Source of the DNA: Treponemataceae bacterium
GTDB taxonomy: Bacteria > Spirochaetota > Spirochaetia > Treponematales > Rectinemataceae
NCBI GenBank assembly: GCA_963678065.2
Contig: CAXXVZ010000002.1
Location: 64,001-128,000 of the forward strand
DNA: 64,000 nt
Direction: 5' to 3'
The position numbers were made by a program, and so were the translations under genes. This document shows positions 37,222 to 59,020 of the stretch, in pieces; position 1 is the first letter of the stretch, and each line of letters opens with the position of its first letter. Under the pieces are notes generated by a model. The model did no database searches, was not told where the DNA came from, and saw only the letters and a program-made list of their open reading frames with translations.

Positions 37222-37231
37222 GAATATTCTC

Positions 37232-38722: not shown

Positions 38723-38840
38723 CCGGTATTCTCCTTGACCGAGACCGCCAGCTACCAACGTGGGCAATCCCCCAGAGGCTTCGACCTGGTGGTGACAGTA
38801 TAAGCTAAATTCGGAACAGGCGAACAGAAAGCGTATCCGC

Positions 38841-38872
38841 GGCCGGCGGATCAGGAAGTCTTCCCGCCGGCC
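38841..38872. terminator. Stem-loop after the SBP gene
   Basis: GGCCGGCGG-N14-CCGCCGGCC. Confidence 0.45.
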
Positions 38873-38900
38873 ACAGACGCATGTCGTTTTTCCGCCACGA

Positions 38901-41100: not shown

Positions 41101-41181
41101 TACCGTCCGGTGGTTGTGGCAGGTCGCTCTGCCCGCTGCTTCAGCAGCGGGTGATGTCCCATTGATGGCAAGGAGGCTTTC

Positions 41182-42414
41182 ATGTATCGGAAAATCGGTT
41201 CGGTGTTGCTCGCGCTTCTGTTCCTCGTGCCTTTCGTCGGCGCGCAGGCGCAGTTCGAGCAGAATTACAGGCAGATGACATGGGATCAGATCGCGGCCGA
41301 GGCTAAGGGGCAGACTGTCTATTACTACGCCTGGGGCGGCAGCGACATCATAAACAGTTTCGTCAACGGGTACTTCAAGGACCGCCTTGCCCAAAAATAC
41401 GGAGTGACCCTGAAATTCGTGCCGGTCACCGATGCGACGACCTATGTCAACAAGGTGCTCGGAGAGAAACAGGCTGGCAAGAACAGCGGAGGTTCCGTCG
41501 ACCTCGTGTGGACGAACGGCGAAAATTTCAGAACGATGAAGCAAGGCAAGCTGCTCTTCGGTCCTTACGCCGACAAACTCACAAACACCAAGTATTACAA
41601 CGAATCCAGTACCGCCTACGATTTCGGTTACCCGGTGGAAGGTTTCGAATCTCCTTACGGCGCGGCCCAGGTCGTCATGGAGTACAACTCCCAGTATGTG
41701 TCGAATCCGCCCAAAACCATTCCCGAGCTCGTGGCCTGGGTCAAGAAAAATCCGGGAAAATTCACCTACGCGGCGCCGCCTGATTTCACCGGCAGCGTGA
41801 TAGTCCGCCACTTCTTCTATGCGAACGCGAACAACATCAACGAACTGATGGGTCCCCTCAACATGTCAGTCTACGACAGGGTCGCCGCGAAAACCTGGGC
41901 AATGCTGAACGAAATCAAGCCGTATCTCTGGATGGGCGGCAAGACCTATCCTGAGAGCAGCATCAAGTCCCAGGAGCTCATGAGTAACGGCGACATCTGG
42001 ATCAGCTTTGAATACGGCCCGAAAGGTGCGGAATCGAGAATCGTGAAGGGAACCTATCCCGCTTCCATCAAGACTGCCGTACTCGATACCGGCACGATCG
42101 GCAATACCAATTTCCTGGCCATCTCCTTCAACTCATCGGTAAAAGCCGCGGCAATGGTGGTGTGCAACGAGATGATGGACCCCGAAGTGCAGTACAAGGC
42201 CAGCCTCGATCCCGACCAGGGTGGTATGGCGTGGATGTCGCCCCTCGATCTGACGAAGGTTTCCCGTGATTGGGCGGCAAAATTCGATGCGCTTCCCAGG
42301 CATCCTTCGACACTCTCGGGCGAGGTACTGAATTCGCACAAGGTATCCGAAATGATGTCCGATTGGCTCGTCAGGATCGAGAAGGATTGGCAGTCCAATG
42401 TCCTGAAGAAGTAA
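41182..42414 (+). CDS. ABC substrate-binding protein (YnjB-like, polyamine/thiamine clade)
   Basis: AKGQTVYYYAWGG, VDLVWTNGENF, NPGKFTY..PPDFTG, GTIGNTNFLAI. Confidence 0.88.
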   Translation: MYRKIGSVLLALLFLVPFVGAQAQFEQNYRQMTWDQIAAEAKGQTVYYYAWGGSDIINSFVNGYFKDRLAQKYGVTLKFVPVTDATTYVNKVLGEKQAGKNSGGSVDLVWTNGENFRTMKQGKLLFGPYADKLTNTKYYNESSTAYDFGYPVEGFESPYGAAQVVMEYNSQYVSNPPKTIPELVAWVKKNPGKFTYAAPPDFTGSVIVRHFFYANANNINELMGPLNMSVYDRVAAKTWAMLNEIKPYLWMGGKTYPESSIKSQELMSNGDIWISFEYGPKGAESRIVKGTYPASIKTAVLDTGTIGNTNFLAISFNSSVKAAAMVVCNEMMDPEVQYKASLDPDQGGMAWMSPLDLTKVSRDWAAKFDALPRHPSTLSGEVLNSHKVSEMMSDWLVRIEKDWQSNVLKK

Positions 42415-42459
42415 GGCCTCCGGTTTTGATTCCTCACTCAAGAGGCTGTTGATTGTTTC

Positions 42460-42504
42460 CCGCCCGTGTATCCATAACCAGCAGTACACGGGCGGCATTT
42501 TTTT
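42460..42504 (+). terminator. Intrinsic terminator-like hairpin between SBP and permease
   Basis: CCGCCCGTGTA-N14-TACACGGGCGG followed by CATTTTTTT. Confidence 0.7.
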
Positions 42505-42520
42505 AACCGCAGGAAATCCG

Positions 42521-43381
42521 ATGACAAAGCGCACTACAGTTACTTTGCTTCTCCTGCCGACCGTGGCTGTGCTCCTCTTCCTGTTCTTCGGGGGCCTGGT
42601 GATGGGCTTGATGCAGAGTTTCAGCTTCATGCCGATGATAGGGTTGAACGATTTCAACATCGATGCCTACAGAAGTCTGTTCAGCGATCGGGAATTTCTT
42701 ATGAGTCTTGCGCTCACTCTGTGGATCTCCATCAGCTCGACTCTGTTGACAGTCGTTTTTGCGATCATCACAGCCCTCGCCTTTCGGAGGACATTCCCCG
42801 GCAAACGGCTGATAAACTTCCTCTATCAATTTCCGATCACCATACCGCACATCGTAATAACGATAGGGACCATGCTCGTTTTTTCACAGAGCGGGATTGT
42901 CGCGAGAATTGCGTATCACCTGGGAATGATATCCGATCAAAGCACGTTTCCTGTTCTGATCTCCGACAATTTCGGATTGGGGATAATATACGTCTATTTG
43001 TGGAAGCAGATTCCCTTCGTCGGCGTCATCGTGCTGTCGATATTGCAGTCTCTGGGGAACAACTTTGAAGAGCTGGCCCGCTCTCTCGGAGCCAACAAGT
43101 GGCAGTCGTTCCGCCATGTACTCCTTCCGACAATCATTCCCGGCATCCTCCCCGCGAGCATCATCTGTTTTTCGTTTACGTTTGGATCCTACGAGGTGCC
43201 GTTCCTGCTGGGCAAACCCTATCCGGCGGTCATATCGGTGCTCGCCATGCGGCTGTACCAGGATGTGGACCTGAATGCCCGGCCGCAGGCCATGGCCACG
43301 GCCGTTTTCATGGCGGTTTTCATAAGCGTACTGGTGGTGTTCTACAGAAAACTTCTGAACAAAATGTCGGGGAGAGGATGA
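42521..43381 (+). CDS. ABC permease
   Basis: WKQIPF, EELARSLGA, FGSYEVP. Confidence 0.92.
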   Translation: MTKRTTVTLLLLPTVAVLLFLFFGGLVMGLMQSFSFMPMIGLNDFNIDAYRSLFSDREFLMSLALTLWISISSTLLTVVFAIITALAFRRTFPGKRLINFLYQFPITIPHIVITIGTMLVFSQSGIVARIAYHLGMISDQSTFPVLISDNFGLGIIYVYLWKQIPFVGVIVLSILQSLGNNFEELARSLGANKWQSFRHVLLPTIIPGILPASIICFSFTFGSYEVPFLLGKPYPAVISVLAMRLYQDVDLNARPQAMATAVFMAVFISVLVVFYRKLLNKMSGRG

Positions 43382-43384
43382 TGT

Positions 43385-44206
43385 ATGGAATCCGAAGAGA
43401 ATAAGGCCAACCCGATACATTGGATCATCTATGTGGGTGTCCTGGTTTCGATGATCGGCCCGCTGCTTCCACAGTTCGTGTGGCCGTTCGCGAAAAGCTG
43501 GTTTTTTCCTGATCTCATTCCTTCAGCATGGAGTGTGAGAGCATGGCAGTACATCGGCAATCCGAACAACCAGGTACTCGAGGCGGTCTGGAACAGTCTC
43601 GTCATAGCGGTGATAGTGATGTTCATCTCGGTAATTCTGGGCGTACCCGCAGGAAGGGCGCTCGGGATGTACCGTTTCCGCGGTAAGGGGATTGTCGAAC
43701 TGTTCATCCTTGCTCCGTCGATCATTCCGGGTCTGGCGGTAACTATGGGTATTCAGGTGGTCTTCATAAAGATGGGACTCGCGGACACCATGATCGGCGT
43801 TGTGCTCGTCCACCTCATTCCCACCATCCCCTACATGACCATCAGCATGAGCGGTGTTTTCGCAAATTACGATCCGGATTTCGAAGAGCAGGCAAAAAGC
43901 CTGGGAGCATCTCCGGCCAAGACATTCTTCCTCATCACCTTGCCGGCAGTCTTTCCGGGCATCGTCACCGGAGCCATGTTCGCGTTCCTGATCTCCTGGG
44001 GACAGTATCTTCTCACGGTGCTGATCGGGGGCGGGAGGGTGATCACGTTGCCGCTCCTTCTTTTTTCCTTTGCAGGCAGCAGGGATAACGCGCTCACGAG
44101 CGCGTTGAGCATCATCTTCCTGCTCCCCGCCATCGTTATCCTGGTTTTTACGAGCAAATTCCTGTCAGGAAAGTCCAGCGGAATGGGGGGCTTTGGCAAT
44201 ATATGA
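43385..44206 (+). CDS. ABC permease
   Basis: HLIPTIPY, EEQAKSLGAS, FLISWGQY. Confidence 0.92.
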   Translation: MESEENKANPIHWIIYVGVLVSMIGPLLPQFVWPFAKSWFFPDLIPSAWSVRAWQYIGNPNNQVLEAVWNSLVIAVIVMFISVILGVPAGRALGMYRFRGKGIVELFILAPSIIPGLAVTMGIQVVFIKMGLADTMIGVVLVHLIPTIPYMTISMSGVFANYDPDFEEQAKSLGASPAKTFFLITLPAVFPGIVTGAMFAFLISWGQYLLTVLIGGGRVITLPLLLFSFAGSRDNALTSALSIIFLLPAIVILVFTSKFLSGKSSGMGGFGNI

Positions 44207-45246
44207 CCTCGATCACTCTGAAAAACATCGGCAAGACCTATGAGGGTTGCAAGACTCCTTCCGTGGAAAATTTCAACCTCGAGATAAACCCCGGAGAGCT
44301 CGTCGCATTCCTGGGGCCGTCTGGATGCGGGAAAACCACGACTCTGAAAATGATCGCCGGATTGCATTCCGTCACGAAAGGCGATGTGCTGTTCAACAAT
44401 GTCCGTGTAAACGACGTAAAACCCGAGAAGAGGGAAGTGGTGATGGTCTACCAGAACTACCTCCTTTTCCCTTATATGAATGTGGCTGAAAACGTCGGTT
44501 TCGGGCTCCGGATGCGCAAGACGCCCAGGCAGGAAATCGACCGGCGCGTCAGGGAAATCCTGAAACTGGTAAAGCTGGAAGGCTTCGGCGACCGCAGCCC
44601 TTCCCAGTTGTCCGGAGGGCAGAAGCAGCGGGTGGCCCTGGCGCGGGCCTTGGTGATACGGCCGAAAATCCTGCTTCTTGACGAACCTCTGGCGAATCTC
44701 GACGCACATCTGCGCGACGAGATGCGCGATCTCATACTGAGCATCCACAAAGAATTCGAAGTCACCACCGTATTCGTCACCCACGACCAGGAAGAGGCGG
44801 TGCTGCTCGCAGACCGCATCGCGCTCATCTTCGACGGCCAGCTCGTGCAGTACAGCCCTTCGAGGGACTTCTACGAAAAACCCGCGAGCGAACGGATCGC
44901 AAGATTCTTCGGCAACGGGAACATCATCGAAGGGACTAGGGAAGGGACAGTAGTGGCGACGGCCCTGGGCAAATTCGCGGTCAGGCCGGATCTGCCGGTG
45001 CGCGATGGTCCCGTGAGCCTGATTATCAGGCCGGAATCGATCAGGCTTGCCCGGGAAGACGTCAACAGTTTCAGAACGAGGATCAGGAAAAAAATCTATA
45101 TGGGAACCTACACCAGATACAGCCTCGAAATGGCAGGGACCGTCTGGGAGACAACAGGGGAATCGAACGATATCGCCGGATACGAAACAGATGACGAAGC
45201 GTGGTTCACGCTCCCTCCCGAAAAGATATGGTTGATCCAGCGCTGA
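44203..45246 (+). CDS. ABC ATP-binding protein (PotA-like)
   Basis: GPSGCGKTT, LSGGQKQR, LLDEP, VTHDQEEA, C-terminal TOBE-like domain. Confidence 0.95.
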   Translation: MTSITLKNIGKTYEGCKTPSVENFNLEINPGELVAFLGPSGCGKTTTLKMIAGLHSVTKGDVLFNNVRVNDVKPEKREVVMVYQNYLLFPYMNVAENVGFGLRMRKTPRQEIDRRVREILKLVKLEGFGDRSPSQLSGGQKQRVALARALVIRPKILLLDEPLANLDAHLRDEMRDLILSIHKEFEVTTVFVTHDQEEAVLLADRIALIFDGQLVQYSPSRDFYEKPASERIARFFGNGNIIEGTREGTVVATALGKFAVRPDLPVRDGPVSLIIRPESIRLAREDVNSFRTRIRKKIYMGTYTRYSLEMAGTVWETTGESNDIAGYETDDEAWFTLPPEKIWLIQR

Positions 45247-45267
45247 GGCAGTTATGGAGAAGACTCG

Positions 45268-46689
45268 ATGATGGCAAAGAATAAGCCACTCAGAATCGGA
45301 CTCGCCGGCCTGCATTTCCCCGTCATGGAAGCGGAAGAACACGGTGTTTTCGAGTCAGCGAAAACTCTTGTCGATCGATATGCAGAAACCGGGCGTTTTG
45401 AAATCACGGCGTGGCCGCGGCTGATCTCCGGAGCGGGGGATGCGGCGAGGGCTGCCCTGTTTTTCGAAGAACAGGGAGTCGATTTTCTGTTGCTTCAAGC
45501 TTCATCGTTGACGATGGGCGACACTATCCTTCCCCTCGTCGAGCATATCGACAGAATCGGCCTGTGGGTCGTCGATGAACCGACATATGACGGCGAATTG
45601 CCCCTGAATTCTCTCACCGGATACAACCTCTGCGTTTCACGTATCAGGGGTCGCTGGGGAGACCGGAAGAAGCTCACGTGGTTTTGGGGGATGGGCGAGG
45701 ATTTTGGCACACGGCTTTGCGCCACAGCCAAAGCGCTTTCAGCGCTGAAGACGCTCGACGGGAGCAGAGTCGCTTCAATAGGTGGAGTTGTCCCCTCGTT
45801 CGAGAACCTCGAGTATCAGAGCGGTTTGTTCGAAAGGTCCCTTGGAATTGAAGTTGTGCCGGTGAGTCTCGAAGAACTGTTCCGTCGCTCCGAAGGGGCC
45901 CCGTCTTCCGAAGTGGAAACGATCCGGGCCTCTCTGATTGGTCAGGCTACCTGCGTCCGTGTCAGTGACGCATTGATGGAGAATACGGCCCGGATCTGCT
46001 ACGGATTGCGGACGGTAAAAGAACGAGAAAATGCCGACGCTTCGGCCCTGCGTTGCTGGCCGGAATTCCAGACCTGGAAAGGCATCGCTCCATGTGCGGC
46101 AGTAGCGTGGTCGAACGACCATTGCATGCCGACAGCCTGCGAAGGCGACGTTCCCGGAGCGGTTGCCATGCTGCTCGGGACTATCCTGTCAGGACGGGCT
46201 GCGTCCATGAACGATCCGGTTGCGCTCGACAGAAAAACCGGAACCGTCCAGATGTGGCACTGCGGTCCAGGTCCGGCAAGTTGGGCGGATGAGCGCGGGC
46301 AATGCCTTGACTACCACCATACGCTCAATCGCCGGCTGGCAGTCGATGCGCCCCGGGCGGGGGTTTCCTCCGACATCCGTTTTGCGAAGGGACCGGTCAC
46401 GATGCTCCGCATCCGGGGAGACGGGAAAAGCCTGTTTGTATTGGAGGGAGATGTAGTCGCAGGTCCCGCAAATCCCTATCCCGGGAGCGGAGGCTGGATC
46501 GGCAATCTGCGAATAGGCCAGGACAAAGTGTCTCTTGAGGACTTGCTGCACATGATGGCGGCATATGGTCTGGAGCATCATTATCCGATCATGCGTGAGC
46601 GGCATTTTGACACTCTGAAGGAAATGGCGGCATGGGCCGGATGGGCAATCCTTCCGCGCATCGATGCTCGGGGAAACCCGGTCATTTGA
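45268..46689 (+). CDS. L-fucose/L-arabinose isomerase family protein
   Basis: LNSLTG, ALRCWPEF, ACEGD, WHCG, LEHH. Confidence 0.82.
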   Translation: MMAKNKPLRIGLAGLHFPVMEAEEHGVFESAKTLVDRYAETGRFEITAWPRLISGAGDAARAALFFEEQGVDFLLLQASSLTMGDTILPLVEHIDRIGLWVVDEPTYDGELPLNSLTGYNLCVSRIRGRWGDRKKLTWFWGMGEDFGTRLCATAKALSALKTLDGSRVASIGGVVPSFENLEYQSGLFERSLGIEVVPVSLEELFRRSEGAPSSEVETIRASLIGQATCVRVSDALMENTARICYGLRTVKERENADASALRCWPEFQTWKGIAPCAAVAWSNDHCMPTACEGDVPGAVAMLLGTILSGRAASMNDPVALDRKTGTVQMWHCGPGPASWADERGQCLDYHHTLNRRLAVDAPRAGVSSDIRFAKGPVTMLRIRGDGKSLFVLEGDVVAGPANPYPGSGGWIGNLRIGQDKVSLEDLLHMMAAYGLEHHYPIMRERHFDTLKEMAAWAGWAILPRIDARGNPVI

Positions 46690-46704
46690 ACAGGAGGAAC
46701 GAAA

Positions 46705-48396
46705 ATGGGAAATACCTGCCATAAACTGCACGAGGATATTGTCGGTTGCTTGATCGGGTCGGCTGTCGGCGATGCCTTGGGCGGGCCGGTCGAAGGGCTC
46801 CATTACACCGATATAATCGAGCGGTACGGTGTCGTGAAGCGGATGCTCCCCTACCCTTCTTCACTTCCTCCTTCATTCCACGGCCCCTTCGGTTCCCGTG
46901 CAGGCGAATGCACGGACGATACCCGATTGGCAAAACTGATCTGCGCAGGTCTCATTGCTTCGGGCGGATTGCCACGATCCGGAAACATAAACCATTCCAT
47001 CTGCAAAACGTATTTTGCCACTGAATCGATACTCGAGAGGGGCTTCCTGGAAGAGTACGCGCTCAAGGCTCTTTACGGTCAAGGCAAGGAAGCATTTGGC
47101 GGAAAAACGACGAACGGAGCGATCATGGCGATAGCTCCCGTGGGAGTCCTGTTCCCGGGAGATCCCTACAGGACTTTCGACACGGCTTTCGATATCCTGT
47201 CCATGGCGACCGGCTCCGCGCGGATAAGCGCTGCCGCCGCGGCTGCCTGCATCAGCGCCGCTCTCAGCGGGAAAGGGAAAGCTCTCGATGTGGTCTTGTC
47301 CGGATTGGATGCCGCCGAGGAGCGGCTGCATCGCGTCGAGGGCAATTACTGGCACCACGGAGGCATGTATCCGCGAGTGGGCGGGTGGGTGTTGGGACTT
47401 GCCCGAAAGGCAGCCGACATCGCGTCGGCATACCGCGATCCATTGAACGAAGAATTCCGGAAGCGTCTTCATGAGGAAATCAACCAGCCATTCTTCGCGG
47501 ACGGCGATGAGACTCTTGCGATCGCCCTGGCAATGTTCGTCGCAGCGGAAGGCGACTTCCGGAGTTCGGTCGTCGGTGCGGCGAACTATGGGAAGGACTG
47601 CGACAGCTATGCCGCGGTCTCCGGGGCCATTTCAGGCGCGTTCAATGGCGTTTCCGCGATACCGGCGGAATGGATCGAAGCCGTTGAGTCCTGCGATTCC
47701 CCGCCACACCTGCGATATCTCGCCGATGGGCTCTGCGCAACGGTCACATCGAGGATGAGAAGGGAGCGGAACAGCGCTTCATTGGTCCCTTTCATGGAGA
47801 TATCCGGAGCAGCGAAGCCCGGACTGCTGGATGCCGTGCGCGCGAAAGATGCGCAAGCGGTCAGCCGGCTCCTCGGTGAAGGGGCCGATCTGGGCGAGCG
47901 CGGCGAACACGGGAGGAATTCCCTGCATCTCGCATGCGCGGCGGGCTGCCTCGATATCGTGAAGACCCTGCTGGTCTTCGGTGCGAACATAAATGAGAAG
48001 GACAACAACAAGACTACTGCGCTCCACTTCGCCGCATGGGAAAACCACATCGAAATCGTGGATCTCTTGCTGGATTGGGGCATTTTCCCCGAAGAACCCG
48101 AGGGCAGGGGATGGACCGCGCTTCACGATGCCGTGCGCAAGGAATACGCCGACATCCCCGTGCGCATTCTATCGAAAACCCGGGGGCTGACCGGAGAGCC
48201 CGAGAAAAAGGCAGAGCTCGAGGCTGTGCAGGGAGAGAACCGCTTTCTGAAACTGCTCGGGATACTGGCAGAATTCCACATCGATCTGGGAGCAATCGGC
48301 ATTTGCGGCCATGGTTTGTTGCATGATTCGAAGGAAAGGGGTTATTCCCGCGCAATCGAATTTCTGCTCGGCAAAGGTGTCGCTGATGAAGCCTGA
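46705..48396 (+). CDS. ADP-ribosylglycohydrolase family domain fused to ankyrin repeats
   Basis: GDALG, TDDT, NGAIM, GKDCDS; C-terminal GRNSLHLAC, KTTALHFAA, GWTALHDAV. Confidence 0.9.
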   Translation: MGNTCHKLHEDIVGCLIGSAVGDALGGPVEGLHYTDIIERYGVVKRMLPYPSSLPPSFHGPFGSRAGECTDDTRLAKLICAGLIASGGLPRSGNINHSICKTYFATESILERGFLEEYALKALYGQGKEAFGGKTTNGAIMAIAPVGVLFPGDPYRTFDTAFDILSMATGSARISAAAAAACISAALSGKGKALDVVLSGLDAAEERLHRVEGNYWHHGGMYPRVGGWVLGLARKAADIASAYRDPLNEEFRKRLHEEINQPFFADGDETLAIALAMFVAAEGDFRSSVVGAANYGKDCDSYAAVSGAISGAFNGVSAIPAEWIEAVESCDSPPHLRYLADGLCATVTSRMRRERNSASLVPFMEISGAAKPGLLDAVRAKDAQAVSRLLGEGADLGERGEHGRNSLHLACAAGCLDIVKTLLVFGANINEKDNNKTTALHFAAWENHIEIVDLLLDWGIFPEEPEGRGWTALHDAVRKEYADIPVRILSKTRGLTGEPEKKAELEAVQGENRFLKLLGILAEFHIDLGAIGICGHGLLHDSKERGYSRAIEFLLGKGVADEA

Positions 48397-49258
48397 ACAT
48401 CGGATCATCGTAGACTGCGACAACACCTACGGCATCCCCGGGCTGCCGATCGACGATGGTCAAACGATAATGTACCTGGCCGGCCGCCCCGACATTGAAA
48501 TAGTGGGCATTACATGCACGCATGGGAATGGGCGGGTGGACGAAGTATTCGACGCCACACGATGGCTCGCCGGGGCATTGGGGCTGCATGATGTGCCTGT
48601 AATCAAAGGGGCTTCCGGCCCGGGAGACTATGATACCGAAGCCGCATCCTGGCTCGCGGGAAAAGCCAGAGCGGAGCCGGGGAAACTGGAACTGCTTGCG
48701 ATAGGGACAATGTCCAACCTGCTCGGCGCGAAGAAGAAAGATCCAGGTTTTTTCTCGAACATCGGGAATATTGCGGCGATGGGAGGCTACCTTTATCCCC
48801 TGCCGGTCCGCGGATGGAACAAGATCGAAGAGGTAAACCTTTCTCGCGATCCCGCTGCGACCGCCGCACTCCTCAGCGCCGAGTGTCCCGTCACTGTCAT
48901 GAGCGCCCAGATCTGCCTGCAGGCACCCTTCGGAATCGACGAGCTCTCCCCGATCGCCGAGAGCGACAGGGCATCCTACTTTTATATGCTGAGCTATCTG
49001 ATGGGCATGATCCGTCGCCACAACGGCGCCCAGGAGTACCTGTGGGACCTGCTTCCCGCGGTGTACATCTCCCACCCCGAGCTCTTCAACCGGAAGCAAG
49101 CGCGCATCTCGACGGATCTGCCGCATCTTTCAAAAGGCAATCTGGTGCCTGATGAAACAGGACCCGTGATAAACCTGCCCGACTACATCGCAGACGTCGA
49201 TTTGTTCTACGCGATCCTCTATGCGGCCTGGAAACGGGCGCCGCTCGTGTGTGTTTGA
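48386..49258 (+). CDS. Nucleoside hydrolase family protein (paralog 2)
   Basis: IVDCDNTYG..IDDG, IGTMSNL, MGG, EVNL, YLWDLLPAVY. Confidence 0.9.
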   Translation: MKPEHRIIVDCDNTYGIPGLPIDDGQTIMYLAGRPDIEIVGITCTHGNGRVDEVFDATRWLAGALGLHDVPVIKGASGPGDYDTEAASWLAGKARAEPGKLELLAIGTMSNLLGAKKKDPGFFSNIGNIAAMGGYLYPLPVRGWNKIEEVNLSRDPAATAALLSAECPVTVMSAQICLQAPFGIDELSPIAESDRASYFYMLSYLMGMIRRHNGAQEYLWDLLPAVYISHPELFNRKQARISTDLPHLSKGNLVPDETGPVINLPDYIADVDLFYAILYAAWKRAPLVCV

Positions 49259-49270
49259 AGGCAGGCAAGG

Positions 49271-50497
49271 ATGACACACAATCTGCGCTACGGAAACCGG
49301 GAGATCGTGGTCGATCTTCCCGACAATCAGACCGATATGATTTCCGCAGAACCGACTATTCATCGCGACGAATCACTGCTCGTTCTGGACGCCATAAACA
49401 AATCCTCCCCCATGCTCCAGGATTTTCTGGGTCAGAGTACCTCGGTAGTCATCGTGGTATCGGACCACACCCGCAATACGGGCAGCCGTACCTATATCCC
49501 TATTCTTCTGGATCAGATCAGGAAAACGGGACGGAAAATCACGATTCTTATCGCGCTCGGCCTGCACAGGCCCTCTACGGAGAGCGAAATTGCAGAAATT
49601 CTCGGCTGCGAACCCGGAAACGGTGTGGTTATCAGAAACCACGATCCTGATGCATATCTCGCAGAATGCGGCGAAGGGACGTTCTGCAAAACGGCGGTGG
49701 ATGCCGAGAAAATAATCCTCACCGGCTCCGTGGCTTTCCATCCGATGGCGGGTTATTCGGGCGGATGGAAAAGTCTTCTCCCGGGGATCGCTTCCCGCAC
49801 AAGTGTGATCGAAAATCACAGGCTCTACTTTTCCGGCAATACCATGAATTCCGGAGTCGGACCCGCACGTTTGGAGAATAATCCCATTTCATGCGATATA
49901 CGGCGCAGGACCCAAGGGTTCGCGGAGAAAACCTGGTGCCTGAATGTCGTCCAGAACGAAGCGAAATCGATAGTGTTCGCGGCGGCAGGCATCGTTGACG
50001 ACGCATGGAGAGCCTGCGCCGGTTATCTCGAACGGCGCAATTCACCAATGATCACGCGATTGTATCCGGTCGTCGTGGCTTCATCGGGAGGGTTCCCGTC
50101 GGATTTCAGTTTTTATCAGTCAATGAAGACCCTCACGAATGCCTCGCGCGCGTGCATCAAAGGAGGCAGCATCTATCTGCTCATGGAGTGCCGGAACGGC
50201 TGGGAACTGGATGAAAGCATTCTGGCTTTGAGACATCTGAAGCTGGAGGAGATCGCGTCGCAGGTGAGAAAAGAATTCTCCATGAGCGGTCTTGCGATGT
50301 ACATGGCCCTGTCGGTGATCAGGGCGCACAAGGTTTTCTGCCTGTCTTCCCTGCCGGAACGCGAGGTTAGCGGATTCGGCATGAAATATCTCGCATCGGA
50401 AGCCGAGATCAGGACTCTCGTCGACGCGGAGAACGCGGACCGGATTGCGGTCATACCTGCAGCTGCCGCCGTACTCCCCTCGCTCTACATCTGCTGA
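49271..50497 (+). CDS. LarA-family nickel-pincer 2-hydroxyacid racemase/epimerase
   Basis: VSDHTR, ALGLHR, NHD, FHPMAGYSGGWKS..PG, GGFPSD..YQSMK. Confidence 0.88.
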   Translation: MTHNLRYGNREIVVDLPDNQTDMISAEPTIHRDESLLVLDAINKSSPMLQDFLGQSTSVVIVVSDHTRNTGSRTYIPILLDQIRKTGRKITILIALGLHRPSTESEIAEILGCEPGNGVVIRNHDPDAYLAECGEGTFCKTAVDAEKIILTGSVAFHPMAGYSGGWKSLLPGIASRTSVIENHRLYFSGNTMNSGVGPARLENNPISCDIRRRTQGFAEKTWCLNVVQNEAKSIVFAAAGIVDDAWRACAGYLERRNSPMITRLYPVVVASSGGFPSDFSFYQSMKTLTNASRACIKGGSIYLLMECRNGWELDESILALRHLKLEEIASQVRKEFSMSGLAMYMALSVIRAHKVFCLSSLPEREVSGFGMKYLASEAEIRTLVDAENADRIAVIPAAAAVLPSLYIC

Positions 50498-50513
50498 CGG
50501 AAAGGGGACAAAA

Positions 50514-51593
50514 ATGCTCCACGCGGGCGTCGAAACGTATCAACGGGGATTTTCACTATTCGAAATGAAAATCCTTCTCAGAACCAACCGCAGTGAATTG
50601 ATCGCGGACGATGAGTATTTCCTGGGTGAAGGGTCTCATCTCCATTCCCTGCTCTCCAATTTCAACCGACTTGATGAAATCCCTGTTCCCGAAAGACCTG
50701 ATGTAGTCCTATCCATCGCCGATGTTCCCGGTTCCCCCTTCACCTTTGCCCAGACAGGAAATGGAGGGTATTCGATCACGGGAACGATTGTGGACTACGA
50801 GCGTTCCTGCATGGACAAACGGTCCAGCATCTTCGGAAACATGGGCCTCTTTTCGAAGCTGTTGGTACGGGAGCTGGAAGTCAGGGGGATCTACTCCATA
50901 CACTCCACTTCATTCTTCGATCGGATGCGGAACAGACTCTACGTCGTGATGGGAGGGTCAGGATCCGGCAAGAGCACGGTTTTGCTCAAAGCGATCTCCC
51001 TGGGCGGCATCGAGGTGTTCGGAACAGAGCTCACGCATTTTTCGTTCGGGGAAGGCAGGACAAAGATGCTCAAGGGTTCGCTGTGGCAGAACTGCAGGAT
51101 GGGGAATCTCATGATCGATTTCCCCGAACTTCTGGATCGTTTCGGTCTGGACTCCCCAAAGGGCGACCCCTGGCACAGCTACAAATCGGTCCCGCTCTTC
51201 TCCATTCAGGTTCCGGAGAATGTCCTCGATTCCGCTTCGATCGTGTTGGTGATGCCCCGCATCGAGGGAGAACGGAGTACCTCGAGCATACGTCAGGTGC
51301 CTGTGAGCTCGGTGCGGAATGTTCTCTTCCAGAACCTGTCCGATAAAGTCACCCCTCCCAGCCTCCTGTGGGGTAAGCATTTCATCCCGAGCCTCGACAG
51401 CCCGGATCGACAGACGGCGCGGATGGCTGCGGCCGAAAAGTTCATCAGCGAAGCTCCCGTCATCGAGTGCTGGAACGTGCTGTCCTCACCACATGAATGT
51501 CTGAACGGTATATTCCCCGCGCGGACCGGAAACGGCGCAGAAACGGAAAATCGAAACGAGCACATGAACGTGCAGGAGGTACTACATGAGTGA
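50514..51593 (+). CDS. Hypothetical P-loop protein, HprK/PEPCK-like putative kinase
   Basis: IHSTSF...VMGGSGSGKST...FGTE mirrors the H..GxSGxGKS..DD layout of HprK; start uncertain (alternative near 50564). Confidence 0.6.
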   Translation: MLHAGVETYQRGFSLFEMKILLRTNRSELIADDEYFLGEGSHLHSLLSNFNRLDEIPVPERPDVVLSIADVPGSPFTFAQTGNGGYSITGTIVDYERSCMDKRSSIFGNMGLFSKLLVRELEVRGIYSIHSTSFFDRMRNRLYVVMGGSGSGKSTVLLKAISLGGIEVFGTELTHFSFGEGRTKMLKGSLWQNCRMGNLMIDFPELLDRFGLDSPKGDPWHSYKSVPLFSIQVPENVLDSASIVLVMPRIEGERSTSSIRQVPVSSVRNVLFQNLSDKVTPPSLLWGKHFIPSLDSPDRQTARMAAAEKFISEAPVIECWNVLSSPHECLNGIFPARTGNGAETENRNEHMNVQEVLHE

Positions 51594-52407
51594 TTCGATA
51601 AAGAGAGGTATGGACGGTGTATATCCATTCCCGGTTTCGGGAAGAGAGAATCCGCCTCGCAGCACTGGACTTACCATGGTCATCGACATGGGCAGCGGAT
51701 TGATTGCCACGAAAGACTTGTTGGATTTCGCGGGGTATTGCATCGACATTTTCAAGCTTTCATCGGGAACGATGGCGCTCTATCCAGACGCGATCCTGCG
51801 CGAAAAAGTGGACCTCATAAAATCGCGCGGAATCGAAGTGGAGGCCGGCGGCTCTCATTTCGAAGTGGCGAACTGGAAAGGCATGAGCACGAAGTACTTC
51901 AAAAAGCTCGTCGAGATCGGGGTGGATGTCGTGGAAATCGCCGATGGCCATCTTCCGCTGGCTGACAGTGTGCGGATCGACAGGATCAAAGAGGCGAAGG
52001 ATCTGGGACTCAAGGTCGCGACTGAGGTCGGAAAGAAAGAACCATCGAAAAACATCAAGGCGCCGACCATACTGGAGCAGTATCGCGACAACATTGAAGC
52101 CGGAAGCGATTACGTCATCATAGAAGGCAAGGCTTCGGGGATGGATGTCGGCATCTTTGACGAAAAAGGGAACATCAACGAACAGGAGTTGACAGAGATC
52201 ACTGGCGGAATCTCCGACATGGGCAGGGTCATCTGGGAAGCTCCGTTGCGACCTCAGCAGCAGGCACTCATTCTCCGGTTCGGCCCCAATGTCAATCTCG
52301 GGAACATTTTCCCTCAGGAAGTGTATCCTCTCGAGCTGCTGAGAAATGCGCTCATGCTTTCTCCCCTCATCAATGCCTATAACAGGGAACAGGGGGCGGC
52401 AAAATGA
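51586..52407 (+). CDS. comA: Phosphosulfolactate synthase (ComA) family protein
   Basis: PRSTGLTMVIDMG, VEIADG, TEVGKK, IIEG, IWEAP..QQ, FGPNVNLGNI, LELLR. Confidence 0.88.
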   Translation: MSDSIKRGMDGVYPFPVSGRENPPRSTGLTMVIDMGSGLIATKDLLDFAGYCIDIFKLSSGTMALYPDAILREKVDLIKSRGIEVEAGGSHFEVANWKGMSTKYFKKLVEIGVDVVEIADGHLPLADSVRIDRIKEAKDLGLKVATEVGKKEPSKNIKAPTILEQYRDNIEAGSDYVIIEGKASGMDVGIFDEKGNINEQELTEITGGISDMGRVIWEAPLRPQQQALILRFGPNVNLGNIFPQEVYPLELLRNALMLSPLINAYNREQGAAK

Positions 52408-53237
52408 GGTTGACGGTGCCTGAACTGGAAAGCAAAGCCCGAGGACTGCGGATCGATACGATAAAGATGATCGCGCAAGCTGGGGGAGGACATCTGGGCG
52501 GGTCTCTGAGCGCGATGGATATCATGACGGCCCTCTATTTCAATGTACTGAGAATCGATCCTGCAGATCCGGAGAAACACGACAGGGACAGGTTCATCCT
52601 CTCGGCGGGCCACAAGGCCGCGGGATACGTCCCCGTGCTTGCGGAGCGCGGGTATTTTCCGAAGAACCTTCTGCCCACGTTCAACAAACTCGAAAGCCGT
52701 TTCGGGATGCACCCCGACAAGAACAAGATCCCCGGCTGCGACGCATCGACAGGGAGCTTGGGACACGGTCTCCCCGTCGGATTGGGAATGGCCCTCGCCC
52801 TGAGACTGGACGGGCTCGATAGCAAGGTGTTTGTCCTGCTCGGCGACGGCGAATTGCATGAGGGAACCAATTGGGAGGCGGCTATGGGAGCAGCCCAGCA
52901 CAAAGCGTCCAATCTCATCGCCATCGTAGACTACAACAAGTGTTCGATGGACGGGCCGATCGACCAGGTTGTCTCTCTCGAGCCTCTGGTGGACAAGTGG
53001 AAATCTTTCGGCTGGGACACGATCCGCATTGACGGGAACGATATGGCACAGGTGTTGGGAGCCTTGCAGGATGCGGCGGGCCGCGGTAAACGCGGGATCG
53101 GAACTCCTGCAGTGATCATCGCCGACACGATAAAGGGAAAGGGAGCGGCGTTCGCCGAGGGCGATTACCGTTGGCATTACGGCTGCCCCAGCGACGAACA
53201 GCTGGCCGAGTCAATCAAGGCACTGGGAGGCATCTGA
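52404..53237 (+). CDS. Transketolase, N-terminal (TPP-binding) subunit
   Basis: GHLGGSLS, DRFILSAGH, MHP, GSLGHG, GDGE..EG, TIKGKG, WH. Confidence 0.95.
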   Translation: MRLTVPELESKARGLRIDTIKMIAQAGGGHLGGSLSAMDIMTALYFNVLRIDPADPEKHDRDRFILSAGHKAAGYVPVLAERGYFPKNLLPTFNKLESRFGMHPDKNKIPGCDASTGSLGHGLPVGLGMALALRLDGLDSKVFVLLGDGELHEGTNWEAAMGAAQHKASNLIAIVDYNKCSMDGPIDQVVSLEPLVDKWKSFGWDTIRIDGNDMAQVLGALQDAAGRGKRGIGTPAVIIADTIKGKGAAFAEGDYRWHYGCPSDEQLAESIKALGGI

Positions 53238-53238
53238 A

Positions 53239-54204
53239 ATGGCTGGATTAAGCATGGCTGATATAGAAAAAATGTCCGCCCGGGATGCGTTCGGTCTCGC
53301 ACTCTCGGAAATCGGAGCGGAGAACGACAAAATCGTCCTACTGGGAGCGGATGCGATCGGAAGTACGCGCGCGGCCGGATTCGCGAAACGCTTCCCCGAT
53401 CGTACCTTCAATTTCGGCATCGCGGAGCAGGAGATGATTTCCGCCGCCGCCGGCTTTGCGGCCTGCGGCAAGATACCCGTAGCGACCGCGTATGGATTTC
53501 TGATTTCCCTCAGGGCCTGCGAGCAGGTGAGGTCGGACATCTGCTACCCCAAGCTGAACGTGAAACTCATGTCGACTCACACGGGTCTGTCGATGTCGGA
53601 GGCAGGGACGACCCATCATTCCACCGAGGACATCGCAATCATGCGCAGCTTCGCGAACATGACGATTGTCGCTCCCTCTGATTCCCTTGAAACAGTGAAG
53701 GCCGTCAAGGCCGTCATCGATTATCCGGGGCCCGTATATCTCCGGATGGGCCGCGGAGAAACTGAATCCGTGTACCAGGAGGATTACGAGTTCGTCATCG
53801 GGAAAGCTGTCTCTCTGCGCGAAGGCCGGGATGTCACGATAATCGCGTGCGGCATTATGGTAGCGGAAGCCCTGAAGGCGGCGGCAACGCTCTCGTCCGA
53901 GGGAATCTCCGTGAGGGTCCTGAACATGCACACGATAAAGCCTCTTGACGTCGAGGCAGTCCTGCTCGCGGCGAAAGAAACGAAAGCCATCGTGACCGCC
54001 GAGGAGCATACGATAATCGGCGGATTGGGCGAGGCCGTCGCCGGGGTAGTCTGCGAAAATACGCCTGTGCCTGTCGTCAAGGTCGGATTGAATGACTGCT
54101 TCGGAATCATCGGACCGGAAGACGGCGTCAAACAGAAACTGGGGCTGAATGCGGAGGCGATATGCCGCTCCGTAAAAAAAGCGATCCTGCTCAAGGCTGT
54201 GTGA
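53239..54204 (+). CDS. Transketolase, C-terminal subunit
   Basis: FGIAEQ, RACEQVR, GTTHHSTED, TIKPLD, EEH..GGLG. Confidence 0.95.
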   Translation: MAGLSMADIEKMSARDAFGLALSEIGAENDKIVLLGADAIGSTRAAGFAKRFPDRTFNFGIAEQEMISAAAGFAACGKIPVATAYGFLISLRACEQVRSDICYPKLNVKLMSTHTGLSMSEAGTTHHSTEDIAIMRSFANMTIVAPSDSLETVKAVKAVIDYPGPVYLRMGRGETESVYQEDYEFVIGKAVSLREGRDVTIIACGIMVAEALKAAATLSSEGISVRVLNMHTIKPLDVEAVLLAAKETKAIVTAEEHTIIGGLGEAVAGVVCENTPVPVVKVGLNDCFGIIGPEDGVKQKLGLNAEAICRSVKKAILLKAV

Positions 54205-54219
54205 GCGAAGAGGTGCGGA

Positions 54220-56058
54220 ATGGTCGGCGGATATTGGCTGAAGGCGTTGAGGGTTGATCTTGATCGGGGCGAGGTGCGCGACGAAAACCTGGATGAGAAC
54301 CTGGCAAAAGCCTGCATAGGAGGGGCCGGATTCGCCTCATACTTCCTTCTTCGCGAGGTCGGCAGGGATGTGGATGCCCGGTCTCCGTCCAACCTGCTCG
54401 CATTCGCGACCGGTCCTTTCCAGGCGATGAAAATTCCCGGCGCTGCCAAGTTTTCCATTTGCACACGATCGCCGCTTACAGGAACATTTACAGACTCCGC
54501 CGCGGGGGGAGAATTCGGTTTTGCATTGAAACGAACGGGCTATGATCTCATCCTTGTTTCAGGCAGGAGCCGGGAACCGGTATACCTCCATGTGACCGAT
54601 GGTACGGCGGAAATCCTGCCAGCCGCAGATCTGTGGGGCAAGGATTCTGTCGAGACATCCGAGATCCTGTCGGGCAGACACGGTGGAGCTTCTGTCGCGG
54701 CGATAGGTGCCGCAGGAGAAAACGGCATCGCGATGTCGTGCGTGTATGTCGACAGGTACTCCGCCGCAGGAAGGGGGGGAACCGGATGCGTCATGGGATC
54801 CAAGCAATTGAAGGCAGTAGTGCTTTCCGGAAACCTGGATCCGCCGGTCTCCGATAAAACGAAAGTCGCGGCATACGAAAAGCGGTTCAGGAAATCGATC
54901 GCCGAGACGGCTGCAGGATTCCGTGAAGGGGGGACGGTAGGCGGCCTCGCTCCGGGCGAGGAATCCGGAAATCTGCCCTTGCGCAACTGGAGTCAGGTAG
55001 GATGGAAGGAAGGTGCCGCGAAGATCGGATACCCGGGATATTCCTCGTTGCACAACACCTTGCACCCCTGCAAATATTGCACGCTCTCGTGCCACAGGCG
55101 GTCGGATGTCTCTTTCCCTGACGGGTATTCGTACAAGGGTCCTGCGCCTGAATACGAAACCTTGGCGATGCTTGGCTCGTGCTGCCTTATCGACGATCTT
55201 GAATCGCTCGTGAAGGCGAACGATGCGTGCAATCGTGCGGGCCTTGATACTATGAGCGCTGGTGGCTGCGCGGCCTTCGCGATGGAGGCGCTGGAGAAAG
55301 GGCACACAAATGGGTTCTTCCCGTCCTATGAACTCTCATGGGGTAATGGCGCGGGCTTGCTCGAGTTCATAGGAGAACTGATCGGGCGCAGGGGATTCGG
55401 AGGACTGTTTTCGGATGGAATCGTCGTGGCCGCTTCAAAATTCCTTCCCGAGGCCTCCCGCTACGCGCATCACGTGAAAGGACAGGACATACCGGCGCAC
55501 GATCCCCGCGTCTACTATAACCTCGGCTTGTCCTATGCCACGGGAAACCGCGGCGCCTGTCACATGCGCGCATATTCACAGATTTCCACTATGGGGGCCC
55601 TGTTGCCCGAGGTCGGCATCGATGTCGCGCCGGCGCCCGACACCCTGGAAGGCGCCGCTTTTGTCGTCAAAACCTATCAGGATTTCACGGCATTCTACAA
55701 TTCCTGCGTGCTGTGCCAGTTCATGATATGGGGCGGTCTCAGCTTGGGCGACATGACGGATTGTCTGAACGCGGTTACCGGATGGCAGATGACTCCGCGC
55801 GATGTGATGGAGTGCGGCGAGAGGGTTTTCACCGTACAGAGGGAGCTGAACAATATCTGGGGCTTTTCCAGAAAAGACGACAAATTGCCCGAGCGGTTTT
55901 TCGCGGCTTCTTCATCGGGGCCCCGGGCGGGCAAAGCGCCTGATCGGGATCGCTTTGCCGCCGAGCTGGCAGAGTTGTATCGTCTCCGCGGCTGGGACGA
56001 GGACGGCATCGTCAGAAACGAGACACTTATACGGCTCGGGGTAGACAAATGGATATAG
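54220..56058 (+). CDS. Aldehyde:ferredoxin oxidoreductase family (W/Mo-pterin)
   Basis: SPLTG, IGAAGE, AAGRGG.G.VMGSK.LKA, CxxCxxxC, PEYET, HDPR, CQF, RGWD. Confidence 0.94.
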   Translation: MVGGYWLKALRVDLDRGEVRDENLDENLAKACIGGAGFASYFLLREVGRDVDARSPSNLLAFATGPFQAMKIPGAAKFSICTRSPLTGTFTDSAAGGEFGFALKRTGYDLILVSGRSREPVYLHVTDGTAEILPAADLWGKDSVETSEILSGRHGGASVAAIGAAGENGIAMSCVYVDRYSAAGRGGTGCVMGSKQLKAVVLSGNLDPPVSDKTKVAAYEKRFRKSIAETAAGFREGGTVGGLAPGEESGNLPLRNWSQVGWKEGAAKIGYPGYSSLHNTLHPCKYCTLSCHRRSDVSFPDGYSYKGPAPEYETLAMLGSCCLIDDLESLVKANDACNRAGLDTMSAGGCAAFAMEALEKGHTNGFFPSYELSWGNGAGLLEFIGELIGRRGFGGLFSDGIVVAASKFLPEASRYAHHVKGQDIPAHDPRVYYNLGLSYATGNRGACHMRAYSQISTMGALLPEVGIDVAPAPDTLEGAAFVVKTYQDFTAFYNSCVLCQFMIWGGLSLGDMTDCLNAVTGWQMTPRDVMECGERVFTVQRELNNIWGFSRKDDKLPERFFAASSSGPRAGKAPDRDRFAAELAELYRLRGWDEDGIVRNETLIRLGVDKWI

Positions 56059-56888
56059 GAGTTCATGTCTCGCTGTGGACTCCCGAATGGGCCAGCCCTT
56101 TCCTGGATGCGCTCGACGCGGCGGCGGATCTCGGATGCACCTGTGTGGAAATCCCGCTCATGGATCCTTTCAATTTCCCTCTGGAAGATATTGAACGCCG
56201 GCTCTCGAAGAATGACCTGAAAGTCTATTGCGGTACGGGGTTGGGCAAAGATACCGACATCGGAAGCGTTTCCGCTACGGTGAGGGAGCGAGGAGTCCGG
56301 CACCTGAGCGAATGTTTGCGAATCTGCGCCGATCTGGGAAGCGACTCCCTCGGAGGCGTCTTGCATTCTCCGTGGGGAATGAGGGGGCCGGTCGATTCCG
56401 GATATGCTCAGCGTGTGGCAGCATCGCTCGGATACGTGGCAGACAAGGCGGCCGAATCCGGAATCGGCATCGCGCTGGAGTGCATAAACCGATACGAGAA
56501 CTCCTTCGTGAACACTGTCGATCAGGGGCTGTCGCTGCTGCGGATCATCGGCCGAGAGAATGTTGGCCTGCATCTGGACACCTATCACATGAACATCGAG
56601 GAGCACGGGATCGTACCCGCAATAGCCGAGGCGGGAAAGACAATCCTGCGGATGCACTTGAGTGAGAACACCAGGGGGTATCCCGGAAGCGGCTCGCTTC
56701 CCTGGAAAGAAATTCTCGCCGCAGCCCAAAAGGCAGGGTACCGGGGACCATGGATCATAGAAAGCTATGTATGCCCGGATTTCCCGGCGTCCGCCGATGT
56801 GTGCGTGTGGAGACCGATCGAGCCCGATATGTCCGCGAGTCTGCGGAAATCACTGGAGTTTCTCGGAGGGCTTATTGCAGCAGACTGA
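56049..56888 (+). CDS. Ketose 3-epimerase (D-psicose/D-tagatose 3-epimerase family)
   Basis: VEIP, ECINRYE, HLDTYHMNIEE, HLSENTRGYPGSG, IES, VWR. Confidence 0.88.
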   Translation: MDIGVHVSLWTPEWASPFLDALDAAADLGCTCVEIPLMDPFNFPLEDIERRLSKNDLKVYCGTGLGKDTDIGSVSATVRERGVRHLSECLRICADLGSDSLGGVLHSPWGMRGPVDSGYAQRVAASLGYVADKAAESGIGIALECINRYENSFVNTVDQGLSLLRIIGRENVGLHLDTYHMNIEEHGIVPAIAEAGKTILRMHLSENTRGYPGSGSLPWKEILAAAQKAGYRGPWIIESYVCPDFPASADVCVWRPIEPDMSASLRKSLEFLGGLIAAD

Positions 56889-56923: not shown

Positions 56924-57628
56924 TCAGGTCTGTGGCCGGGGGGTATTCCTGATCTGTTTTTTTTCCCGGAAGACCGACAAGATGTTTTCTTCGCTCAGCA
57001 GAATGTGCGAGCGGAACGCTTTCTCGTATTTTTCCTGTTCTCCTGAAGCGAGAGCTTCTATCAGCTCCCTGTGCATCATGGACATGTATGTGTCGGAGAA
57101 CTCGAAATAATGGATCATGCGGAAAAGAACGTGCATCTGTGACGCGATGTCCTTCCATGCCTTCACGAGACGCTGGTTGTCCGATTTCTGAATGATGAAC
57201 AGATGGAATTCAATGTCCAGATCCGATAATTCGGCGTAGTTGTATGATTTCTCCGACGCGACGATCTTGTCGAGAATCGAGTTGAGAGTGACAAAATCAT
57301 TTTCCGTCAAATTCCCGTGGGCAAGGCGGACTCCAAGCACTTCGAGGCTCGCCCGCAGTGTCACCAGCTCGTTGATATCCTTCTCTGTGAAATCGATGAC
57401 CGATATGCCCCGCCGCGCTTTGAACAGTATGAGTCCTTCCTGGGCCAGTTCCCGTATCGCTTCGCGCACAGGTGTCTTGCTGATGGCCATCTGGGTGGAT
57501 ATCGCCTGTTCGACCAGCTTGGTCCCAGGGGGAAGTTGGCCGTTTAAAATCGCTTCCCGAAGGTTGCTGTACGCGATTTTATACAGAGGCGAGTTCAGCG
57601 ATTCCTTTATCTTGAGTTCGTGATGCAT
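56924..57628 (-). CDS. GntR-family regulator (FCD domain)
   Basis: LPPGTKLVE, SKTPVREAI, RASLE, DIEFH, H..LIEAL; convergent on the operon end. Confidence 0.93.
   Translation of the reverse strand: MHHELKIKESLNSPLYKIAYSNLREAILNGQLPPGTKLVEQAISTQMAISKTPVREAIRELAQEGLILFKARRGISVIDFTEKDINELVTLRASLEVLGVRLAHGNLTENDFVTLNSILDKIVASEKSYNYAELSDLDIEFHLFIIQKSDNQRLVKAWKDIASQMHVLFRMIHYFEFSDTYMSMMHRELIEALASGEQEKYEKAFRSHILLSEENILSVFREKKQIRNTPRPQT

Positions 57629-59000: not shown

Positions 59001-59020
<20 letters not shown>

Follow-up and report, generated by a model that had tools for sequence, protein, structure and literature searches.

What would a homologue of LarA-family 2-hydroxyacid racemases, a P-loop protein of the phosphoenolpyruvate carboxykinase (PEPCK)/HPr-kinase fold and a homologue of the phosphosulfolactate synthase ComA do together? 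The question is raised by three adjacent forward-strand genes in a 64,000-nucleotide (nt) stretch from a Treponemataceae bacterium (GenBank assembly GCA_963678065.2, contig CAXXVZ010000002.1, positions 64,001 to 128,000), hereafter called the window, in which all positions are counted from its first letter. They are larA (49271-50497; 408 amino acids (aa); Lar_N 131.8 bits plus LarA_C), the gene of the P-loop protein, a predicted 2-hydroxyacid 2-kinase (50514-51593; 359 aa from an ATG start, the longest open reading frame (ORF) beginning at TTG 50445), and comA (51586-52407; 273 aa), predicted to encode a divergent ComA-family TIM barrel acting as a beta-eliminating lyase that yields phosphoenolpyruvate (PEP). 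An earlier, sequence-only reading of this DNA had described three adjacent genes, the last two overlapping by 8 nt, and the coordinates bear this out (51586-51593). It had also treated them as a stand-alone module for the desulfonation of sulfolactate, which proved too narrow: the ComA gene overlaps by 4 nt a transketolase gene (from 52404), the three genes lie in the middle of a same-strand run (40171-56888), and larA-kinase-comA is part of a conserved 16-gene cluster found in mostly spirochaete bacteria. The three genes probably encode the last steps of the anaerobic catabolism of a 5-substituted riboside. We tentatively suggest, as something possible rather than probable, that this riboside is an arsenosugar of the kind found in algae, whose carbon-arsenic bond would be cleaved by the divergent ComA with release of PEP.

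The conservation of the cluster was assessed in two ways. A scan with the kinase alignment, using one genome per species, returned 10 loci, nine from metagenome-assembled genomes titled as spirochaetes and one from a Firmicute. The kinase gene lay directly upstream of comA in 10/10, an order that is therefore not due to chance; the transketolase directly followed ComA in all seven loci whose contig continued, and LarA directly preceded the kinase in seven of the 10, stood three genes away in one and fell outside the fetched stretch in two. The reverse scan, i.e. of metagenomes with an alignment of the ComA clade defined below, gave 32 loci (several of them near-duplicates), of which 18 were clade-type; the kinase was found upstream in 17 of these, and the eighteenth was too short for its presence to be judged. 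It is kinase-ComA-transketolase that forms the stable core, and not LarA-kinase-ComA. Within the source genome (G000), the genes for the kinase, ComA, the importer binding protein and the ADP-ribosylglycohydrolase (ARH) family protein discussed below each occur in one copy. The cluster is nevertheless rare and patchy. Among 401 sampled Spirochaetota, strong matches to the kinase profile were obtained in two genomes, the source genome and G123, in which a kinase of the sister type described below is broken into two ORFs on a 1.7-kb contig (L022, G123:C268) downstream of a methyltransferase-like ORF; G123 was excluded from the larBCE and comB counts given below (11 genomes searched, 10 counted). 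In the phylum of another carrier, G406, the kinase family was strong only in the centre genome among 401. A variant of the cluster (L052:2630-8955, also L053 and L056) carries a GH42 gene and, upstream of the usual LarA, a 3-hydroxyisobutyrate-dehydrogenase-family gene and a second LarA homologue, closest to LarAH14/15/16 and below cut-off. The cluster is real, conserved and undescribed in the literature searched, most subscription papers lying outside that search; the terms "arsenosugar catabolism", "arsenosugar-degrading", "dimethylarsinoyl lactate", "sulfolactate kinase" and "phosphosulfolactate lyase" were not found there, and phosphosulfolactate synthase combined with LarA gave nothing relevant.

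The ComA homologue has the fold of its family (PF02679 244.7 bits, cut-off 25.2; Foldseek match to the Methanocaldococcus jannaschii enzyme, PDB 1qwg, with E 4.7e-23, TM 0.81 and 37 % identity) and falls below the cut-off of the phosphosulfolactate synthase equivalog TIGR03849 (261.4 against 280). Judged by its residues, it is not a canonical phosphosulfolactate synthase and belongs to a clade of its own. Of 1773 homologues the best 120 were compared, and a boundary at 58 % identity to the query split them into 61 clade members and 59 others; the next homologues in this set have at most 50 % identity, and one at 50 % (P0227), an intermediate with several of the clade changes, was counted as canonical. 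Eight substitutions are fixed in 61/61 members (K35M, F60S, T90S, F91H, S119A, T122H, R182K and E183A) and R257M is found in 60/61, so that two basic residues, K35 and R257, have turned into methionine. The canonical motifs DKG, GGT, SDG, EGRE and C-terminal RGDT read DMG, GGSH, ADGH, EGKA and MLxP in 60-61 of the 61 members, while K57, E93, E117, D120, E147, K151, E180, E218 and N240 are kept, K151 being the equivalent of Lys137, a catalytic residue of ComA. Mean column identity in the clade is 73 %. In the ComA model, the substituted positions lie at the ends of barrel strands 1-4 and 6, and it is this face of a TIM barrel that carries the active site. The residues replaced there may, in canonical ComA, bind sulfite or sulfonate. 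Compared with the M. jannaschii enzyme and with XcbB, as the latter appears in the available part of PMC9457059, the window protein shares the fold and the catalytic core, whereas its active face differs by nine or more substitutions fixed in the clade, and it has lost RGDT, lies under the TIGR03849 cut-off, has a kinase partner and no comB, and is predicted to work in the lyase direction on another leaving group. Two pairs of kinase and ComA homologues, P0076/P0227 and P0299/P0285, hint at a possible linkage, since within each pair the longest contigs are equal in length (6744 and 108895, respectively).

The absence of the phosphatase gene extends beyond the locus: comB (PF04029) had no match in the whole source genome (99.94 % complete, 6.72 % contamination, 5 contigs). 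It is present in 2/10 other cluster genomes and lies, in the comparable case of G406, on a different contig. The sequence-only reading was likewise correct that the window holds no ComB, ComC or SuyAB, since the six PF02615 (ComC family) and three PF04295 (SuyB/UxaA family) matches of the source genome all lie elsewhere; both families are broad and these matches are not assigned to sulfolactate. Synthesis of coenzyme M or of spore sulfolactate was rejected because comB is absent and the ComA motifs are altered.

The P-loop protein had no Pfam match and no useful NCBIfam match, with none to PEPCK or HPr kinase; its sequence retrieved nothing among solved structures (best E 0.59) and fell only into unnamed clusters of the ESM Atlas. 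Its predicted model (pLDDT 90.8) has PEPCK as best Foldseek match (E 8.8e-10), and comparison by VIA gave Z 12.2 with PEPCK (rmsd 5.3, 294 aligned) and Z 10.6 with HprK (rmsd 3.8, 133 aligned), against Z 4.4 for unrelated rows. Both the fold and the Walker A motif of the PEPCK/HprK P-loop superfamily are thus present: H130, G147, G152 and K153 are invariant across 37 divergent family members, and H130, the Walker A Gly and Lys, E172, H175 and R195 are kept in members down to 25 % identity. PEPCK or HPr kinase proper was rejected, there being no family profile match, a length of 359 aa where PEPCK exceeds 500 and an identity of 10-13 %; from its model, the protein may fairly be taken for a small-molecule kinase. 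The sequence-only reading had argued that a kinase in the place of the phosphatase implies a catabolic direction yielding PEP, and this part of it remains plausible: given the PEPCK/HprK fold, the lack of comB, the separate occurrence of kinase and comB in the scanned canonical-ComA loci described below and the pyruvate, phosphate dikinase (PPDK) neighbour of the kinase in two of them, a kinase step followed by ComA running backwards to PEP is reasonable. We consider that reading correct as to the direction but probably mistaken about the substrate.

The LarA homologue keeps the catalytic and cofactor-binding residues of its superfamily (D65, R68, H99, H157, K167, H183 and K286), the catalytic ones in all aligned orthologues. 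It thus has in common with known racemases, i.e. Mar2 (PDB 6d6z) and LarAH10, LarAH52 and LarAH66 as presented in the accessible part of PMC11770544, the two catalytic His (H99, H157) and the cofactor-binding Arg, Lys and His (R68, K167, H183) by which the superfamily is recognised. It differs from them in lying under all five NCBIfam LarA subfamily cut-offs, in having at the specificity positions P158, M159, L341 and A342, which match no group listed in that part of the article, and in the lack of any larBCE found. The same source names the four specificity positions, with His/Gln and Lys at the last two (358/359 of LarA1) in malate racemases, where the Lys probably pairs with the distal carboxylate. 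At this anion position the window LarA (L341-A342) and 8/8 orthologues have Leu-Ala or Leu-Gly and no Lys. Sulfolactate is an isostere of malate, so a Lys would be expected in a LarA that racemises it; the malate-racemase-like signature expected for sulfolactate was not found.

As for the nickel-pincer cofactor, larB, larC and larE were not found over cut-off in the source genome with four profiles, nor by tblastn with the LarB, LarC and LarE of three other spirochaete genomes in its five contigs, where a gap is possible. The suggestion that these genes would be encoded elsewhere therefore failed in a 99.94 % complete, 5-contig assembly, and their absence had itself been named beforehand as a reason to give up the racemase step. 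The source genome holds five strong matches to the LarA family by Lar_N (C3:377056, C3:600984, C4:503470, C5:972099 and C2:113289) and two weak ones. The absence of larBCE despite several LarA genes may reflect scavenging or uptake of the cofactor, an unknown route to it, an assembly gap or an idle enzyme.

The genes around the three, all on the forward strand, offer a context for these changes. From families, several of which were matched only below their cut-offs, we infer a pathway together with all its substrates, its direction and the identity of the substituent X; the scheme with some X at C5 seems to us probable. Upstream, a YnjB-type ABC importer (41182-45246; NF008633 441 bits, cut-off 203; also recognised by Pfam), made up of a binding protein (41182-42414), two permeases (42449-43381 and 43385-44206) and an ATPase (44203-45246), would take up a 5-substituted riboside, most likely a 5-deoxy-5-dimethylarsinoyl-riboside. 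The base or aglycone would be stripped by two predicted riboside hydrolases of the nucleoside hydrolase family (40171-41100, PF01156 114.4 bits, kept in the cluster; and 48389-49258, longest ORF from 48311, PF01156 110.7 bits) and by an ARH family protein with C-terminal ankyrin repeats, predicted to be a second type of riboside hydrolase (46705-48396; PF03747 146.5 bits plus Ank; solved relatives distant only). An aldose-ketose isomerase-like protein, distantly related to SftI (45268-46689; no Pfam match; NF048012 117.8 bits, cut-off 700), and a ketose 3-epimerase-like TIM barrel (56049-56888; PF01261; NF051856 D-psicose 3-epimerase 174 bits, cut-off 300) would convert 5-X-ribose into 5-X-xylulose without a kinase. 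The split transketolase (52404-54204; halves 52404-53237 and 53239-54204), in which the Asp of the EDG motif is replaced by Ala or Gly in 6/6 aligned orthologues, a change consistent with an unusual substrate, would then pass two carbons to central metabolism and leave 3-X-lactaldehyde. For ribohydrolases followed by a transketolase to yield a C3 product, the ketose must have five (or seven) carbons.

An aldehyde:ferredoxin oxidoreductase (AFOR) family protein (54220-56058; AFOR_N 228 and AFOR_C 344 bits) would oxidise the aldehyde to D-3-X-lactate, the D-form coming from C4 of ribose. LarA would invert C2 to the L-form used by the ComA scaffold, the PEPCK-fold protein would phosphorylate the 2-hydroxyl, and the ComA homologue would eliminate X, i.e. 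dimethylarsinite, to leave PEP; arsenic as a leaving group reportedly has a precedent in arsenite elimination. The product of ComA is given as 2R in the part of PMC9457059 available, its assignment as L being our own; a D-form from ribose set against this configuration would explain why a racemase precedes the kinase. A convergent GntR/FCD regulator (56924-57628, reverse strand), a homologue of which flanks the cluster in 6/10 genome loci, lies just beyond the run.

Arsenic enters this scheme through the neighbours of the importer family. Spirochaetes yielded 22 further importer loci. Three that lay at contig ends were excluded, and in six of the remaining 19 the "arsenosugar biosynthesis glycosyltransferase" TIGR04283 was found over cut-off beside the importer, fused to TIGR04282 in four. 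A MerA-like flavoprotein was present in 12/19 and a TVP38 protein in 7/19, the kinase and ComA in none of the 19. On plasmids, a CDP-alcohol phosphatidyltransferase adjoins the importer in 8/12 loci; a DUF2064 gene, a TIGR04282 match below cut-off and the subfamily of the second nucleoside hydrolase each occur in 1/12, and the sole match of that hydrolase in the plasmid collection (E<=1e-15) is the hydrolase that immediately precedes a YnjB-type importer in Peptoclostridium acidaminophilum. ArsS, according to the available text of PMC13598754, makes 5'-deoxy-5'-dimethylarsinoyladenosine, a 5'-substituted nucleoside. In the source genome arsS is absent and TIGR04283 is not over cut-off (TIGR04282 was not searched genome-wide), as expected of a consumer. 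Arsenosugar biosynthesis (ArsM, ArsS, TIGR04283/TIGR04282) would have 5-dimethylarsinoyl-ribose in common with the proposed route, and in some other loci the importer family stands beside TIGR04283/TIGR04282, whereas the cluster studied here has no biosynthetic genes and is read as a route of breakdown. In six of the loci (L087-L091 and L094), from genomes without arsS, the YnjB-type importer is accompanied by an APH-family kinase gene, TIGR04283/TIGR04282, the MerA-like flavoprotein, TVP38 and DUF1499; these loci look like a system that takes up a 5-substituted ribose and recycles it into a glycolipid.

Several observations weigh against the arsenosugar proposal. The six loci with the glycosyltransferase belong to three genera, from two families, and cannot be counted as independent; 13/19 loci lack it. 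arsS was found in 0/23 importer-bearing spirochaete genomes as against 97/401 overall, and none was named in the 12 plasmid importer loci, so that arsenic is linked to the importer only via the family names of TIGR04283/TIGR04282, for which no tested reactions were found in the literature searched. The binding protein of the window is only about 40 % identical to those adjoining the glycosyltransferases, and E. coli has the importer family without TIGR04283 over cut-off. Dimethylarsinite is toxic, and the cluster genes of 28 loci include no recognisable arsenic exporter or ArsR gene; the ArsP-family permeases of the source genome lie only outside the cluster. In our judgement, peat or groundwater may contain too little arsenosugar to justify the cost of an operon of 16 genes. 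The enzymes themselves add further difficulties: a full larBCE set was found in only 2/10 other cluster genomes (completeness not given), and the racemase may therefore lack its cofactor; and in the P-loop protein, Thr-Glu stands in place of the Asp-Asp of PEPCK and HprK, so that its predicted kinase activity is itself uncertain.

The gene inventory and the loss of basic residues in ComA and LarA would also fit a thioether at C5. The substrate would then be 5'-methylthioadenosine (MTA) or methylthioribose (or S-ribosylhomocysteine, or the sulfoxide or sulfone of one of these), degraded via 3-methylthiolactate to PEP and methanethiol. MTA and methylthioribose are common by-products of S-adenosylmethionine chemistry, and methanethiol needs no exporter, in agreement with the lack of one in the clusters; one importer homologue adjoins msrA/msrB and two adjoin rhodaneses. 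Methylthiolactate is reported as an MTA-derived metabolite of Rhodospirillum rubrum in the accessible part of PMC4958253. Such a substrate would, however, leave the adjacency of the importer to TIGR04283/TIGR04282 and to phosphatidyltransferases unexplained unless these make a sulfur analogue, and the source genome has a separate mtnA over cut-off, though no mtnK; on balance we find a thioether unlikely. That X is something else again, i.e. a hydroxyl (as in a pentose route without phosphorylation that employs an L-2-phosphoglycerate enolase), a halide, a selenium group or another 5'-substituent, or that a non-eliminating ComA is accompanied by a vestigial LarA, we regard as rather unlikely. 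The importer may take another ligand, the newly fixed histidines H91 and H122 could point to another metal site or another reaction, larBCE is missing in most carriers searched, and the three variant loci add their second LarA homologue and 3-hydroxyisobutyrate-dehydrogenase-family gene. Against this, ordinary ribose needs none of these special enzymes, and neither the retention of the LarA catalytic residues in every aligned orthologue nor the strong conservation of the ComA clade (73 % mean column identity) favours it.

A sulfonate, the substituent assumed by the sequence-only reading, is in our estimation quite improbable. Here a sulfosugar would be the source, LarA would racemise sulfolactate, the kinase would form phosphosulfolactate and ComA running backwards would release PEP and sulfite. 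The ComA fold and catalytic core are kept, the sole family match of the isomerase is the sulfoquinovose isomerase SftI, split transketolases act in sulfoglycolysis, and a sister kinase paired with a canonical ComA is accompanied by PPDK, a D-2-hydroxyacid dehydrogenase and TctCBA. But the clade no longer has Lys35, Arg257, Glu183 and the RGDT motif found in the sister ComA (TIGR03849 261 here against 334 there, cut-off 280), LarA has no Lys for a distal anion, and the SftI score of 118 out of a required 700 does not identify a sulfoquinovose isomerase. A transketolase acting on C6 sulfofructose gives C4 and then C2 products, not C3, and hexose sulfoglycolysis was rejected on this carbon count. 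TauE was found near only 1/28 loci, on the opposite strand and about 3.6 kb beyond the cluster. With basic residues lost from ComA, no anion Lys in LarA, riboside and pentose enzymes upstream and no exporter, sulfolactate as the substrate of this locus was not upheld.

The sister system fits that idea better than the window locus does. Among 14 loci with a canonical ComA, four (L059, L061, L070 and L071) have a gene distantly homologous to the kinase gene immediately before comA, and four others have comB downstream; no scanned locus held both, all but three long loci having been scanned with Pfam. PPDK, which consumes PEP, directly precedes the kinase in 2/4 of the kinase loci; the order in one (L071:1-6983) is CoA transferase, D-2-hydroxyacid dehydrogenase, PPDK, kinase and ComA, and another locus (L072) reads ComA, GntR and TctCBA. 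The sister ComA (L061) passes TIGR03849 (334.1, cut-off 280). This pair has in common with that of the window a kinase of the same family (27-32 % identity) directly upstream of ComA; it differs in that its ComA keeps DKG, GGT, SDGT and RGDT and in that its neighbours are PPDK, D-2-hydroxyacid dehydrogenase and TctCBA and not riboside enzymes. The sister kinase has 601 homologues, those with names coming mostly from Deltaproteobacteria, and no match in plasmids or viral contigs; its context thus rests on four to five short loci, three or four of them (among L059, L061, L071 and L072) from near-identical organisms. By its sequence, the sister operon is the best candidate for a true desulfonation of sulfolactate to PEP, and no description of a sister kinase with a canonical ComA was found in the literature searched.

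Some likeness to known sulfonate pathways remains whatever X may be. Like the SqwGH sulfo-transketolase pathway, the cluster would use a split transketolase on a sugar whose terminal phosphate is replaced; there, a C6 sulfosugar ends in excreted C2 sulfonates, whereas the ribohydrolases here imply a C5 substrate, a C3 product and cleavage of the bond to X. The proposed route would resemble the degradation of sulfolactate by SlcC/ComC and SuyAB, as outlined in the accessible part of 10.1101/2023.08.01.551581, in that a 3-substituted lactate is inverted at C2 before the group on C3 is lost. In that system two dehydrogenases and a UxaA-type lyase lead to pyruvate, whereas a LarA homologue, a kinase and a TIM-barrel lyase are predicted here to lead to PEP.

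Elsewhere in the window, a divergent operon on the reverse strand (34574-39974) carries a GH3-family gene and a ribose-type ABC transporter, which also flanks the cluster in L043 and may share its substrate class. Further downstream, a GatB-like ORF of 863 aa (59001-61592, reverse strand) has a C-terminal extension that resembles, by eye, an asparaginase/GatD domain. At least ten more split-transketolase-like gene pairs and several aldehyde:ferredoxin oxidoreductases in the source genome suggest many other undescribed sugar catabolic operons.

In the arsenosugar proposal, to which we return with the same caution, the cluster might constitute a complete oxygen-independent pathway with a new kinase family and a ComA-derived lyase. 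The known C-As lyase, ArsI, is an oxygen-dependent dioxygenase, and an arsenic substituent would mean new, oxygen-free C-As lyase chemistry. The conversion of arsenosugars to dimethylarsenic is described as unclear in the available part of PMC6656958; if the proposal is true, the cluster would reveal which genes carry out this conversion in anoxic sediments and what class of ligand the YnjBCD importer family takes up, and would provide an example of a nickel-pincer racemase that functions although its host does not synthesise the cofactor through LarBCE. Were X a methylthio group, the cluster would be a new, methanethiol-releasing route for MTA. In either case, an unnamed kinase family of about 600 proteins would be followed by a ComA scaffold turned to new use as a general eliminase. 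The cluster offers named, soluble enzymes, and its analysis separates two systems that annotation has merged as "phosphosulfolactate synthase".

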